A stretch of 64,000 bases of DNA from a virus: the IMG/VR virus record IMGVR_UViG_3300043172_001413; one strand, given 5' to 3'. The translations under genes were made by a program, and so were the position numbers. Under the pieces are notes generated by a model. It searched no databases, was not told where the DNA came from, and worked only from the letters and a program-made list of their open reading frames with translations. Each line of letters opens with the position of its first letter. The first letter of the stretch is position 1. This document shows, piece by piece, positions 33,978 through 48,577 of this stretch.

Positions 33978-35153
33978 ATGAGCAACGGATATGTAGAAAG
34001 CATATTGGATAATGACCAGTATAAGTTTTCTATGCAGGCTGGTGTGTGTAAGCTATACCCCAGAGCAGTAGTACGGTATGATTTCATTAATCGGGACAAC
34101 CGGGAGTTCCCTGACCATTTCGGGGAGGAGTTAAAAAGAATAATCGATACCTTCCGAGGATTGATTCTATCAAAAGAAGCAAAAGAATTCGTTGAAAAGA
34201 ACTGCTATTATTTTGATCCGGTCTATGTTGATTTTCTGTTTGGGTACAGATATAATCCTGAGGAAGTTTTTATTCAGCAGAGAGATCATGTTTTAGAAGT
34301 GTATGTCATAGGGCCGTGGTATAGAACTATTTTATGGGAACCCCCTCTCATGTCTGTGATAAGCCAGCTCTATTTTGAAATGACCTCCCCAACAAAGATG
34401 ATCCGGGCACAGCGCAGACAAAGAAATAAAGAAAAATTTGAAGCAATCAATATGATAGGTGTCCACTATGCCGATTTTACATCGCGACGCAGGTATAGTT
34501 TTCGGAATCATTTTGAAGTAGTTCAGGATTGCATAGAATTTGGAAAAGGACATTTTGTAGGTACAAGCAATCTTCACTTAGCTATGGTAAATGATATAAC
34601 TTCTATAGGAACTCAAGCACATGAATGGTTCCAGTTTCATGCCGCCAAATACGGTTTTCGCATGGCAAATGAAATGGCTATGAAAGCTTGGATCGATGTC
34701 TACCAGGGTAACTTGGGTATTGCATTACCGGACACATTCACCACAGATGTCTTCTTAAAGAGTTTTAATTCATTATACGCCCGCCAATTTGATGGGATGC
34801 GTCATGATAGTGGCGATCCTATAATATTCACGAATAAAGCAATAGAACATTATGACAGTTTGCGAATAGACCCCAAGTCTAAGGTTCTGGTCTTTTCTGA
34901 CAGCATAAATAGTATCTCAAGAATTTCAGAAATACACACTGGTTGTGAAAACCGGATAAAAGATAGTTACGGTATTGGGACATGGTTCGGGAATGACGTG
35001 GGTGTGAAACCTTTGAATATTGTTATAAAAATGACAGGTGCTTATCTCGATGGGCAATGGATTCCCACTATTAAATTATCAGATGATAAGGGAAAGAATA
35101 CCGGTGATAAGGACATGATTGATCTGGGCAAAAGGATTTTAAGGATAAAATGA
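33978..35153 (+). CDS. pncB: nicotinate phosphoribosyltransferase
   Basis: ILDNDQYKFSMQAGV and GPWYRTILWEPPLMSVISQLYFEM match E. coli PncB LLDTDAYKLHMQQAV and GPWREVILWEVPLLAVISE. Confidence 0.8.
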   Translation: MSNGYVESILDNDQYKFSMQAGVCKLYPRAVVRYDFINRDNREFPDHFGEELKRIIDTFRGLILSKEAKEFVEKNCYYFDPVYVDFLFGYRYNPEEVFIQQRDHVLEVYVIGPWYRTILWEPPLMSVISQLYFEMTSPTKMIRAQRRQRNKEKFEAINMIGVHYADFTSRRRYSFRNHFEVVQDCIEFGKGHFVGTSNLHLAMVNDITSIGTQAHEWFQFHAAKYGFRMANEMAMKAWIDVYQGNLGIALPDTFTTDVFLKSFNSLYARQFDGMRHDSGDPIIFTNKAIEHYDSLRIDPKSKVLVFSDSINSISRISEIHTGCENRIKDSYGIGTWFGNDVGVKPLNIVIKMTGAYLDGQWIPTIKLSDDKGKNTGDKDMIDLGKRILRIK

Positions 35154-35431
35154 TACCCTACGGTATGAAAGATTTCCTGATTGAAAAAGGATTTACCAAA
35201 AGTGTCAATGGGGGATATGCATTCACCAAAGGTGTGGACGATGGCGGTGATTATTACGTTCTGCGAATTCATAATTTGATATGGCTGGCGTATAATTTGA
35301 ATGATGGTTTTGCAGAGTTACGGAGAGATACGGAAAAAATCGGTGTAAGGGGTCGCAGGGTGAGAATATGCTTCCCGAAACCGTTCAAGGATAAGAAATC
35401 ATTAAAGAAATTATTAGAAGTACTATCATAA
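35150..35431 (+). CDS. hypothetical protein (93 aa)
   Basis: ORF with an atga overlap with pncB. Confidence 0.35.
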   Translation: MIPYGMKDFLIEKGFTKSVNGGYAFTKGVDDGGDYYVLRIHNLIWLAYNLNDGFAELRRDTEKIGVRGRRVRICFPKPFKDKKSLKKLLEVLS

Positions 35432-35661
35432 CATGGGAGTTTTTATGGCTATGCAAGTCGATTATGATGATCAGCTTGATGATTTAATGGGTAAAGTCAA
35501 CGAAGAGCTGAAAAAAGAGAACATACCGATTCAGTTTGAGGATGATGGAGAGATACATGAAGGATATCAACTCTATAATATAGTGAAAAAAGATCAGTAA
35601 ATACCGGTTATAGCTTGTTTTACAAATAGAGAATAATTTTAACTTTAGTAGAGGAGGTTTT

Positions 35662-46324: not shown

Positions 46325-47503
46325 GTGAAAAAATCCATATCTATATTCATATTGATATTGATGTTTGTGCCCGTCTCTTTTGCTGTTACTGGTTCTCCCG
46401 GAGCTGGGACTAAGAGCGTAAAGTCTTGGCCGAAAGAACCTGTCGAGAAAACTCTGATTGTTGATGTCCATGAATTTAAACCTATGGTAGTAGTGGAACA
46501 TCTGAAAGAATTGGAAGAATATAAATCCCGGTGGGGGTCTGCTGTACAACCTGTCAGCCTTGAAGGTCATGATATCGATCTCTGGGAAAGAATTCGTAAA
46601 GACCTGAATCTGGATAAATTCAACTACTATTATCTTGACAGTTTCAGTAAGGTTATGCCTCGTTTAAAAGGTGGCGCTGATGTATCTCTCGGAGGAATAA
46701 CTATTACAGCGGTTCGGGAAGAAGATGCTGATTTCGTTCCGTACATGCGTTCTGGTGCAGGGGTACTCGTACTGAAAGAAATAAGATGGTGGGTAAAAAT
46801 CTGGCTCGAAATAGTATTTTATGCGCTGTTACCAATAACTTTAGCCCCTTTCTTTTTGGGTTGGGCTATATATGTATGTTTTTCAGCGTTAATAATGTGG
46901 CTATTAGAAAAAGGTAATCCAGATTTCAATGATAAATTTGGTCCTGGTTTTCCTGATGCCCGGTTCTTTGTACATGTAGTTATATCGTCCACAGGTTTTG
47001 GTAATCAGATACCTATGTCAAAGTGGGGTAGAAGAGTTGCCGTGATTTTGATGTACTCCGGTATTGGCTTTATGTTTCCTCTTATAACTGGACAGATCAC
47101 ATCAGAGATCAGCAAGAAGAATTTAATGTATATATCCTGTAAAGAGGATTTAAAGGATAAAAGAGTGGCTGTAAAGGACGGGACAGTGACATCAAAATCA
47201 GTAACTCTCCAGAATCTTGGAGCAGAGTTATTCCCATGTGAGAGCGTAGATAGCGGTATTATGCTTCTTAAAGATGGAAAGGTTGATGCAGTTGTACATG
47301 ATAAGCCGGCACTGGAATATGCTGCCAAAGATGATCATGAATTAACCGTTGTGGATGAGCTTTTCGATATCCAGATATACGGTATTGCATTAAAACAGGG
47401 TAGCCCGTTAAGAGAAAAAATAAGTCGCCTCGTCCTTGAGTACGAAGAAAGTGGCTTTCTCGATGAATTATCCATTAAATGGCTGGGGAGTACCAGTGAC
47501 TAA
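46325..47503 (+). CDS. prokaryotic ionotropic-glutamate-receptor-like ligand-gated channel (SBP lobe, pore, SBP lobe)
   Basis: Signal peptide. Two TM helices flank a pore-loop-like VISSTGFGNQIP. The C-terminal lobe (RVAVKDGTVTSKS...VDAVVHDKPALEYA...IALKQGSPLREKISRLVLEYEESGFLDEL) is typical of SBP_bac_3, giving the GluR0-like S1-M1-P-M2-S2 layout. Confidence 0.5.
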   Translation: MKKSISIFILILMFVPVSFAVTGSPGAGTKSVKSWPKEPVEKTLIVDVHEFKPMVVVEHLKELEEYKSRWGSAVQPVSLEGHDIDLWERIRKDLNLDKFNYYYLDSFSKVMPRLKGGADVSLGGITITAVREEDADFVPYMRSGAGVLVLKEIRWWVKIWLEIVFYALLPITLAPFFLGWAIYVCFSALIMWLLEKGNPDFNDKFGPGFPDARFFVHVVISSTGFGNQIPMSKWGRRVAVILMYSGIGFMFPLITGQITSEISKKNLMYISCKEDLKDKRVAVKDGTVTSKSVTLQNLGAELFPCESVDSGIMLLKDGKVDAVVHDKPALEYAAKDDHELTVVDELFDIQIYGIALKQGSPLREKISRLVLEYEESGFLDELSIKWLGSTSD

Positions 47504-47693
47504 TAAAACAAAGGAATTAAAAAAGGAAGCATTCAAAGCTTTGTCATGTCTCTTTATAGAAGTGCATGAAAGTATTGCTAATGATGTTAGGAATAAAGTC
47601 AGTGATCTTGTGACTGCTCTTGAAGTGGAATTAGAAGTTGCTGATACTACTGATAAGAAAATGGACATAATCTTGAAAGCTTTGAAAAAATGA
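47436..47693 (+). CDS. hypothetical protein (85 aa); start uncertain
   Basis: ORF overlapping the 3' end of the channel gene in another frame. Confidence 0.25.
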   Translation: MSTKKVAFSMNYPLNGWGVPVTNKTKELKKEAFKALSCLFIEVHESIANDVRNKVSDLVTALEVELEVADTTDKKMDIILKALKK

Positions 47694-48577
47694 ATAAGAA
47701 ATATCCTGAAGAATTACTGCAGCAAATAAAGCAGGTTTATGTGGGCACTTTTGGCCGTACTTCCATGGCAGCCCGTTTGGATGATATTCAGAAAGAGGCC
47801 TTTGAATTGACCCGGGCTCGGGATATGGAGAGCCTGAAGGACGAGACAAGCGATTTACTGGGTACCCTGTTTCAATGGATAAATGAAGCAGGGTACAGTA
47901 TCGAAGAGTTGGTACAGATGAACTGTGATAAAATTAATAACCGTTCTCTGTATCGGCAGCTCGGAAGAAAAGTTTCGGTTGCTCTCATAGGAGGGGCCTT
48001 TGATCCTATACATAATGGACACATAGCGATGGCAGAGTTTCTTTTAAATGAGACAAAGAGTTTTGATGAAGTCTGGTTTGTGCCCTGTTATCGCCATTTG
48101 TACGGGAAATTAATGGCTCCTGCTAAACTGCGCCTTGAAATGTGTAGAATGGCAGCCAGTTCTGACAAAAGGATTAAAGTCTGTGATTATGAGATTGTCA
48201 ATGAATTGGCAGGGGAAACCTATTATTTCTTGAATAAATTTTTAGAGGAACCTTTTGCTAAAGATGAGTACCGGTTCAGCTATGCCATAGGACTTGATAA
48301 TGCAAATACTTTTCATAAATGGAAAAGTTACGAGTATCTGGAAAAACTTACCTCTTTTATTGTGGTCTCCCGCCAGGGTGAAGTACCGGAGCAGGGTGTT
48401 GATTGGTACCATAAAGAACCCCATAAATTTTTTGAGGCAGGAGGCTTAATTCCTGACATATCCTCTACTGAAGTACGTAATATGATTCGTGAAAATGCTG
48501 TCCCGGGAGCTATCCGGTCAAAGTTACCTGAGAAAGAAATATTCAATTTAATAGAAAAAGAGGGACTTTACAGCTAA
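47690..48577 (+). CDS. nadD: MazG-like NTP pyrophosphohydrolase domain fused to nicotinate-mononucleotide adenylyltransferase (NadD)
   Basis: C-terminal domain VALIGGAFDPIHNGHIAMAE is the (H/T)xGH nucleotidyltransferase motif of NadD. The N-terminal ~90 aa (LDDIQKEAFELTRA...ETSDLLGTLFQW) resemble MazG. Confidence 0.7.
   Translation: MNKKYPEELLQQIKQVYVGTFGRTSMAARLDDIQKEAFELTRARDMESLKDETSDLLGTLFQWINEAGYSIEELVQMNCDKINNRSLYRQLGRKVSVALIGGAFDPIHNGHIAMAEFLLNETKSFDEVWFVPCYRHLYGKLMAPAKLRLEMCRMAASSDKRIKVCDYEIVNELAGETYYFLNKFLEEPFAKDEYRFSYAIGLDNANTFHKWKSYEYLEKLTSFIVVSRQGEVPEQGVDWYHKEPHKFFEAGGLIPDISSTEVRNMIRENAVPGAIRSKLPEKEIFNLIEKEGLYS

Follow-up and report, generated by a model that had tools for sequence, protein, structure and literature searches.

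Genomic context of the NAD+ locus

We analysed a stretch of 64,000 nucleotides from the IMG/VR virus record IMGVR_UViG_3300043172_001413 (hereafter the window), which carries between positions 33,978 and 48,577 four genes for the synthesis of nicotinamide adenine dinucleotide (NAD+). They are predicted to encode a nicotinamidase (PncA-like), a nicotinate phosphoribosyltransferase (PncB), an NAD+ synthetase (NadE) and a MazG domain fused to an adenylyltransferase (MazG-NadD). A first-pass annotation made from the sequence alone had placed all four on the plus strand at this locus, and profile searches support the identities, with the catalytic motifs kept. By these predicted identities the enzymes would together lead from nicotinamide through nicotinate, nicotinate mononucleotide (NaMN) and nicotinate adenine dinucleotide (NaAD) to NAD+. 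Three further genes, referred to below as the trio, encode a VWA-domain protein, a PP2C-type phosphatase and a Ser/Thr protein kinase (STK). The NAD enzymes and the trio are as follows.

33978..35153, plus strand: PncB, nicotinate phosphoribosyltransferase (NCBIfam, Pfam and PDB matches), predicted to convert nicotinate, phosphoribosyl pyrophosphate (PRPP) and ATP to NaMN
35662..36498, plus strand: putative divergent nicotinamidase, PncA-like, 278 aa, first gene of a four-gene core (family profile, AlphaFold2/Foldseek, invariant residues)
36568..37335, plus strand: VWA-domain protein with the residues of a metal ion-dependent adhesion site (MIDAS), in the TerY-like position of the trio (Pfam VWA, Pfam matches of the family, invariant residues)
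37369..38259, plus strand: PP2C-type protein phosphatase (Pfam PP2C_2, 60.5 bits)
40540..42249, plus strand: Ser/Thr protein kinase with a C-terminal all-beta, beta-propeller-like domain (Pkinase, invariant residues, AlphaFold2/Foldseek)
42391..43314, plus strand: NadE, single-domain ammonia-type NAD+ synthetase (TIGR00552, PF02540, SGGVDS loop), predicted to convert NaAD, ATP and NH3 to NAD+
47690..48577, plus strand: MazG-NadD fusion, with a MazG-type domain at about residues 1-90 and a nicotinate-mononucleotide adenylyltransferase at about residues 94-295

These genes belong to a single co-directional block of about 20 open reading frames (ORFs) that spans the plus strand from 33978 to 48577, with minus-strand genes on either side. 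PncB is separated by 508 bp from the PncA-like gene, which lies 5.9 kb from NadE, and NadE in turn lies 4.4 kb from NadD, in agreement with the spacing first described (pncB and pncA adjacent, nadE about 6 kb on and nadD about 4 kb further). The locus had also been called an accessory island; the term is loosely right for a co-directional block, but the G+C content of 0.39-0.41 is the same as that of the flanks, and a compositional island was therefore rejected. Just past the end of the block, at 48001-50000, where the direction of transcription switches, the G+C content falls to 0.31, compared with about 0.40 elsewhere. Scans for promoter-like sites (37 seen versus 45.1 +/- 7.1 in shuffled sequences) and terminator-like sites (13 versus 11.0 +/- 3.2) were uninformative, and what suggests an operon is the common strand together with the short gaps between genes.

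The element is a huge phage of about 512 kb and not a bacterial chromosome, a point on which the interpretation in the first-pass annotation had depended. The window carries 26 tRNA genes in a 24-kb array at 536-23755, and at least five ORFs resembling HNH homing endonucleases are found among the tRNAs (5873-6457, 10902-11564, 12456-13073, 13944-14627 and 22562-23164). Proteins identical to the PncA-like protein and the kinase are encoded on a 512,380-bp contig, and the window proteins share 41-49% amino acid identity with published uncultured huge phages of 462-735 kb, the best relatives being LR756500, LR756501, LR756511 and LR745208. An IMG/VR contig of 469,617 bp has the gene order PncB-PncA-VWA-PP2C-STK-MazG-NadD, with 47-70% identity to the window proteins, and the scan of window ORFs gave neither ribosomal nor core bacterial genes. 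It is the tRNA/HNH array, the 512-kb contig and the similarity and gene order common to published huge phages and IMG/VR contigs that identify the element. With megablast the 14.6-kb block matched none of 50,697 phage records, so the phage is known at the protein level only. An exact 58-mer of the window was likewise missing from the IMG/VR collection searched, in which the source contig is therefore not included.

Identity of the NAD+ biosynthesis enzymes

PncB passed the cut-offs of two NCBIfam models, NF003704 (411.8 bits, cut-off 379) and TIGR01514 (364.7, cut-off 269.55), and matched both NAPRTase domains of Pfam (NAPRTase_N PF17767 and PF04095). Namat, the transferase of the phage NARP1 route, was considered as its identity and rejected because the PncB equivalog thresholds were passed. 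The closest solved relative is 2im5 (E 5.9e-91, full-length alignment), which we take to be a Porphyromonas gingivalis (Bacteroidota) protein, and the GTQAHEW segment of PncB is aligned with GTHPHEW of 2im5, a GTxxHEW motif whose His is presumably the phospho-histidine site of the enzyme. NadE, a protein of 307 aa, scored 113.6 bits with TIGR00552 (cut-off 63.65) and 115 bits with PF02540, and its SGGVDS sequence is aligned with SGGIDS of solved NadE structures. The presence of this loop, together with the lack of any match to a glutaminase (CN_hydrolase) domain in the window NadE, indicates that the enzyme is of the ammonia-dependent type.

In the MazG-NadD fusion the adenylyltransferase part matches PF01467 with 68 bits, and all of its 17 PDB matches are NadD. 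The HxGH motif is found in GGAFDPIHNGH, with H111 invariant, and the SxxxxR motif in ISSTEVR, with S259 and R263 invariant. A profile of the N-terminal domain matched E. coli MazG (3cra, 7.5e-8) and 2yxh (6.6e-4) with EExGDLL aligned; E52, D55, E66, K81 and R85 are invariant, E36 is nearly so, and the acidic EExGD and K..R motifs are kept. With the window sequence alone the MazG model of Pfam gave 20.3 bits (cut-off 22), whereas PF03819 is recorded for most homologues. Full-length MazG-NadD proteins were found in about 31 IMG/VR contigs, many of them of 200-675 kb, and in just four contigs from metagenome-assembled genomes (cellular or viral) when one genome each of 185,579 bacterial and archaeal species was searched, all other matches in these genomes covering the NadD part only. 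The fusion is essentially restricted to viral contigs and it looks new; a literature search, in which coverage of subscription papers was incomplete, found nothing relevant on MazG fused to NadD.

The protein encoded at 35662-36498 is accepted as a probable divergent, long-form nicotinamidase, although it is the weakest call of the four enzymes and its activity is predicted from motifs and a model of its fold. A profile built from 36 homologues gave only nicotinamidases as top PDB matches, with yeast Pnc1 at 1.4e-11. The AlphaFold2 model (mean predicted local distance difference test score, pLDDT, 92.8) had A. baumannii PncA as its best Foldseek match in the PDB (1.4e-14), and the first 24 matches are all nicotinamidases, with template modelling (TM) scores of 0.74-0.81 on the target. 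Residues D13, K168 and C218, as well as D56, H58 and H134, are invariant in the 36 homologues and are aligned with D8/K122/C167 and D51/H53/H94 of Pnc1, which we take to be its catalytic triad and the metal site that binds the pyridine nitrogen, respectively. The protein is longer than solved nicotinamidases (278 aa compared with 180-216) and has an insertion of about 65 residues and a C-terminal extension, neither of which is found in them. A stand-alone homologue with 49% identity (protein P0113, L238 8001-8792) is encoded without the trio on a bacterial-looking contig, where its neighbours are permease, PfkB and PAS-sensor genes. The long form of nicotinamidase thus also exists in cells, from which the phage may have acquired its gene.

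The nicotinamidase gene is linked to a VWA, PP2C and kinase trio

The VWA protein of the window scored 22.2 bits with Pfam VWA, slightly under the cut-off, and a family profile compared with the PDB by sequence gave no match. Its identity rests on Pfam VWA matches in 11 of the 24 family members (best E 9.4e-10) and on the MIDAS residues, D42, S46, T113 and D151 being invariant. The kinase scored 23.1 bits with Pkinase on the window sequence, PF00069 is recorded for most of its homologues, and the catalytic residues K43, E59, D142, N147, D161 and D163 are invariant; its AlphaFold2 model (pLDDT 89.7) gave kinases and WD40-containing proteins as Foldseek matches. The same three domain types are found in adjacent, co-directional genes in the TerY-P triad (Anantharaman et al. 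2012 and Gao et al. 2020, summarised in PMC11090510), where a PP2C phosphatase and a TerY-like VWA protein accompany a Ser/Thr kinase that ends in a zinc ribbon or, in the defence version, an OB fold. Unlike in TerY-P, the kinase of the window has a beta-propeller-like domain and the trio is encoded by phages, in association with a nicotinamidase and genes for NAD synthesis. TerY-P was rejected as a label for the trio, since no PADLOC model matched the VWA, PP2C, kinase or PncA-like proteins at E <= 0.001 and the kinase is without zinc ribbon or OB fold.

In order to examine the conservation of the module, 80 IMG/VR loci were retrieved with the PncA-like profile and, reciprocally, 80 with the kinase profile. 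Dereplication reduced the former to 69 groups, among which PncA identity has a median of 51% and goes down to 34%. The VWA gene comes after the PncA-like gene and in the same direction in 74/80 loci, usually 16-130 bp downstream, PP2C is found in 71/80 and the kinase in 73/80, and 60 of the 69 groups have the complete trio. The reciprocal set gave PP2C in 79/80, VWA in 73/80, the PncA-like protein in 72/80 and PncB in 34/80 loci, and most of the eight kinase loci without the PncA-like gene are cut by a contig end. At least one further NAD-synthesis gene lies within 10 kb in 32 of the 69 groups, and nine groups have a gene for NAD synthesis or a Nudix protein within the core itself (for example PncA-VWA-PncB-..-PP2C-NadD-STK). 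Unbiased clustering of the ORFs of the PncA-like loci put the four core genes at the top and PncB (25 loci) next among real genes, and NadD, a Nudix-fused adenylyltransferase (NadM-Nudix), glutamine-type NadE, ammonia-type NadE, Nudix and PARP-like proteins are among the neighbours that come after it in frequency.

The linkage within the core is not mere synteny of the whole region, as other window genes rarely accompany it (SPFH in 1/80, vault-like in 1/80 and NADAR in 6/80 of the PncA-like loci), and the clustering of NAD genes is not due to chance, as these genes are found clustered in dozens of viral contigs. The genes that lie between the enzymes, VWA, PP2C and kinase, are conserved partners of the nicotinamidase and not filler. 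The four NAD enzymes are found within about 7-10 kb in the contigs L133, L162 and L159, and pncB-nadD-nadE clusters in many IMG/VR contigs. A PARP-like protein (for example L172 5374-6714, PARP catalytic domain 102.5 bits plus PARP_reg) is encoded within 10 kb of the core in 9/80 loci, and a Macro-domain protein (L241 12723-13235) just downstream of the core on a 397-kb contig; NAD+-consuming and ADP-ribose-handling genes travel with the module. The core of nicotinamidase, VWA, PP2C and kinase, with PncB, NadD, NadE and NadM-Nudix as its commonest extra neighbours, looks new and is apparently undescribed; we found no paper that ties a nicotinamidase to such a trio in phages, in a literature search of incomplete coverage.

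Close relatives of the window locus are compact, with the orders PncB-PncA-VWA-PP2C-STK-MazG-NadD (L157) and PncB-PncA-VWA-PP2C-STK-NadE (L182). Relative to these loci, comparison of gene order identifies the 6-kb and 4-kb gaps of the window as insertions. The inserted genes encode several small membrane or low-complexity proteins and the following four proteins, of which the first three are noted as lacking in the compact versions of L157 and L182.

38913-40154, plus strand: SPFH/Band 7 protein
44775-45473, plus strand: CesT-like chaperone
45563-46255, plus strand: PspA/IM30 protein
46325-47503, plus strand: GluR0-like ligand-gated channel (SBP_bac_3, 52 bits, interrupted by an Ion_trans_2 pore, 36 bits)

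The GluR0-like protein has a signal-peptide-like N-terminus and a periplasmic-binding fold that is split by a potassium-channel pore, which is unusual for a phage.

Comparison with known NAD+ routes

The first-pass annotation had regarded a full Preiss-Handler set as lying outside the published phage routes. This part does not hold, as complete salvage or Preiss-Handler pathways have already been reported for 174 'NAD-jumbo phages', with pncB-nadD-nadE clusters among them (PMC11662467, Microbiome 2024), and the same paper suggests, with no experiments, that such sets may counter NAD+ depletion. The same idea has been put forward for pncB/nadD/nadE in a 2026 paper on phage X1. The window phage falls under the definition of a NAD-jumbo phage, a genome larger than 200 kb with every gene of at least one salvage or Preiss-Handler pathway, since PncB, NadD and NadE, in addition to PncA, are present and the contig is of 512,380 bp; like Kuafu_71 with its pncB-nadD-nadE cluster, it exceeds 200 kb and has the full pathway clustered. 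The main clade of NAD-jumbo phages has a predicted Bacteroidota host, and the set described consists of pncB, nadD and nadE, with pncA named just in passing and the kinase, PP2C, von Willebrand domain and MazG unmentioned (PMC11662467). A 735-kb phage is stated in the same paper to have only nadD. With tblastn, however, LR756501.1 (735 kb) gave a MazG-NadD with 44% identity and adjacent NadE-like and PncB (46%) genes (matches at 30866-31723, 428848-429462 and 430260-431435), and it may also hold a complete nicotinate-to-NAD+ route.

Among cultured phages, the Sinorhizobium jumbo phage Phosso (PV764938, L237; 469 kb) has an NAD cluster of about 6 kb at 4569-10210. Here the genes for NadE, PncB, a MutT-like protein, an NMN adenylyltransferase (NMNAT; NMN, nicotinamide mononucleotide) and a protein annotated simply as 'hydrolase' lie side by side, and the last has the nicotinamidase motifs VIDxQxDF, DTHH, PIHC, EKG and ADFC and matches the PncA-like profile with an hhalign probability of 93%. 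Phosso differs from the window in its separate MutT/Nudix protein, its unfused NMNAT and its short classical nicotinamidase, and no trio is annotated in the 13-kb stretch.

The experimentally backed phage NAD+ routes that we found in the literature are NARP1, NARP2 (preprint) and NARP3. NARP2 (Nampt and Nmnat), like NadV/NatV of Vibrio phage KVP40, starts from nicotinamide and ends at NAD+, as would the route in the window, but takes two amidated steps via NMN, whereas the latter would take four deamidated steps, with nicotinate, NaMN and NaAD as intermediates, an extra ATP-dependent amidation and other enzyme families. The counter-defence role of NARP2 has been shown by experiment and the window route is predicted from sequence; PncA, PncB and NadE are not mentioned in the preprint on NARP1 and NARP2 (Osterman). 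An adenylyltransferase fused to a pyrophosphohydrolase is common to the phi-Grn1/KVP40-type enzymes (PMC7824862) and the window phage, the hydrolase being Nudix in the former and MazG in the latter. NARP1 (Adps and Namat) and NARP3 (PnuC and NadR) are also cases of phage-encoded NAD+ restoration, as is proposed for the window, although NARP1 recycles ADP-ribose via ADP-ribose pyrophosphate (ADPR-PP) and NARP3 imports nicotinamide riboside, whereas the route considered here would start from nicotinamide. PRPS-like, Nampt-like, NadR, PnuC and the other NARP1/2/3 families were not found among the scanned window ORFs of at least 150 aa, and a literature search for 'NARP4' gave nothing relevant, with incomplete coverage of subscription papers. 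The four reactions and enzyme families are those of bacterial Preiss-Handler salvage (pncA, pncB, nadD and nadE), from which the window set differs in being virus-encoded, in the MazG domain of its NadD and in its long, divergent, trio-linked nicotinamidase.

Proposed function and alternative explanations

In light of these data, we propose that the block encodes a working nicotinamide-to-NAD+ route embedded in a conserved module, a reading to which we assign a probability of roughly 60%. The PncA-like protein would convert nicotinamide to nicotinate and NH3, PncB would join nicotinate to the phosphoribosyl group of PRPP, with use of ATP, to give NaMN, the NadD domain of MazG-NadD would adenylate NaMN to NaAD, and the ammonia-type NadE would amidate NaAD to NAD+, the NH3 released by PncA being chemically a co-substrate of NadE. 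The window route is an expanded copy of a compact jumbo/huge-phage module, split by inserted membrane-stress genes, whose core of PncA-like protein, VWA, PP2C and Ser/Thr kinase frequently has PncB, NadD, NadE or NadM-Nudix attached or interleaved. The phage would in this way recycle nicotinamide, the one NADase product that most bacteria may reuse only via PncA, while the kinase, phosphatase and VWA protein would regulate or sense this recycling. The benefit would be that NAD+ is kept available over a long infection, including when NADase defences of the host fire. A counter-defence role is plausible and is made attractive by the nicotinamidase being the most consistently phage-encoded enzyme and by nicotinamide being the pyridine product of defence NADases.

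Several observations weigh against this proposal. The window PncA-like protein has no Pfam match (PF00857 included), its 27.5 bits with PRK11609 are far under the cut-off of 174, and PF00857 is recorded for only some of its homologues; as curated Pfam and NCBIfam thresholds failed, its substrate is assigned from motifs and fold. The NadD part scored 111.8 bits with TIGR00482, which is 0.65 bits below the cut-off of 112.45. The preference of NadD for NaMN or NMN, and of NadE for NaAD or NaMN, is not readable from sequence, and activity of the enzymes during infection, by which the NAD+ level would be raised or maintained, is predicted from sequence. About half of the loci with PncA and the trio lack a further gene for NAD synthesis over a distance of 10 kb, and the trio may for this reason serve another purpose. 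Finally, the window covers 64 kb of the genome and other NAD routes are possible elsewhere in it.

A general cofactor supply, in which NAD+ is topped up for a long infection and for NAD+ consumers of the phage (PARP-like transferases, ligases) with no specific role against NADases, is possible, if on the unlikely side. CoaC/CoaB and an acyl carrier protein, encoded in the same window, fit such a supply of cofactors as well as a defence-related role, and in other phages genes for PARP-like, Macro and NADAR proteins are repeatedly found close to the module. NAD+-consuming enzymes of phages are stressed in PMC11662467, and the jumbo phage PA5oct is reported in the literature to raise expression of the host pncA-pncB1-nadE operon in ordinary infection. 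The conserved phage gene is, however, the nicotinamidase, the step that handles the NADase product, whereas PncB, NadD and NadE alone would do for supply. The two roles are not mutually exclusive, and given a working route we see defence evasion and general supply as roughly even candidates for its main benefit.

A more ambitious version of the proposal is that the core and the Preiss-Handler/NadM enzymes form a regulated system for NAD+ reconstitution, in which the trio would sense NAD+ cleavage or the state of infection and switch recycling on, as a fourth, phospho-controlled class of counter-defence, with MazG removing a defence-related or inhibitory nucleotide; taken as a whole we think this unlikely.

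The PncA-like protein could instead belong to the function of the trio, as part of a TerY-P-related switch for signalling, superinfection exclusion or host takeover, and either act on another substrate or destroy nicotinamide and so starve competitors of the substrate for NARP1/NARP2, so that the phage pathway would lead from nicotinate to NAD+ only. This would fit the much tighter association of the PncA-like gene with VWA, PP2C and kinase (about 90% of loci) than with PncB (about 30%), the 65-residue insertion and C-terminal extension of the protein, and the stand-alone bacterial defence systems that have been reported for TerY-P-like trios in PMC11090510. We nevertheless consider it quite improbable. 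The D56/H58/H134 metal site with the D-K-C triad is a nicotinamidase signature, and the top sequence and fold matches are all nicotinamidases. To our knowledge, other isochorismatase-like amidases lack the Asp-His-His metal site. NAD-synthesis genes are moreover the favoured extra neighbours of the core, and neither the PADLOC search nor the propeller-like domain of the kinase, in place of a zinc ribbon or OB fold, points to TerY-P.

The order of the last steps could also be swapped, with NadE first making NMN from NaMN, like the NMN synthetase of Francisella, and NMN serving as the substrate of the adenylyltransferase. The divergent phage NadE is about as near to 3fiu (1.2e-14), which we take to be the Francisella enzyme, as to other solved NadE structures, and NadM-Nudix adenylyltransferases stand in for NadD in many related loci; the Francisella route also appears in the reference list of PMC7824862. 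The adenylyltransferase of the window is, on the other hand, of the NadD type and its best matches are all bacterial NaMN-preferring NadD structures, which makes the swapped order doubtful. An origin of the window from a bacterial chromosome or plasmid, with the genes as ordinary housekeeping copies, is hardly tenable against the 26-tRNA array with its homing endonucleases, the lack of ribosomal and core bacterial genes among the scanned ORFs and the huge phage genomes and IMG/VR contigs that share its gene order, even though the PncA-like family has the cellular member described above.

Other genes of the window

Outside the NAD block the window encodes the following proteins.

5191-5841: NADAR protein (72.4 bits)
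15735-16376, minus strand: SpoU-type RNA methylase
24548-25723, plus strand: class II aldolase-like protein
26190-27526, plus strand: CoaC (Flavoprotein, 95.6 bits) and CoaB (DFP, 133.7 bits), as separate genes
28329-29165, plus strand: Amidohydro_2 protein
30752-33232, minus strand: major-vault-protein-like (MVP-like) protein of 826 aa (MVP_shoulder 100 bits, Vault_3, Band_7)
33565-33795, minus strand: acyl-carrier-type PP-binding protein, immediately upstream of pncB
57855-58562, plus strand: 2H phosphoesterase/Acb1-like protein (34.8 and 33.1 bits; HxT motifs at H54 and H130)
62568-63959, minus strand: family 9 glycosyltransferase (heptosyltransferase-like)

CoaC/CoaB and the PP-binding protein are a second cofactor-synthesis theme in the window. 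Homologues of the vault-like protein with 41-43% identity are encoded by the huge phages LR756500 and LR756501, and in one IMG/VR locus (L147) the vault-like gene lies between NadE/NadD and NADAR/PncB. An ADP-ribose theme that would extend from the NAD genes to the NADAR and 2H proteins had also been suggested; both proteins are real, but they lie 28 kb and 9 kb from the block, NADAR is found with the module in 6-9 of 80 loci, none of the loci has the 2H protein, and the linkage is weak. The 2H protein matches the anti-CBASS Acb1 family (33.1 bits), has a C-terminal CxxC...CxxC tail resembling a zinc ribbon, and could be a counter-defence enzyme that degrades cyclic nucleotides. PADLOC searches with the SPFH, NADAR, 2H, MazG-NadD and MVP-like proteins matched no defence model, and the PspA-like protein gave a negligible LmuB match.

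Implications for phage-host conflict over NAD+

Bacterial immunity commonly ends in the depletion of NAD+, as in Thoeris, DSR, SIR2-HerA and other systems. Many very large phages encode the deamidating four-step route, which has so far been catalogued only, and the window offers a complete set of genes that can be cloned. The link between nicotinamidase and trio suggests that NAD+ recycling may be regulated in huge phages, and the MazG-NadD fusion points in the same direction. If this link is one of inherited gene order only, the window would belong to an ordinary 'NAD-jumbo phage'; if it is functional, regulated recycling of NAD+ would add a new layer to the contest over this cofactor between phages and their hosts.

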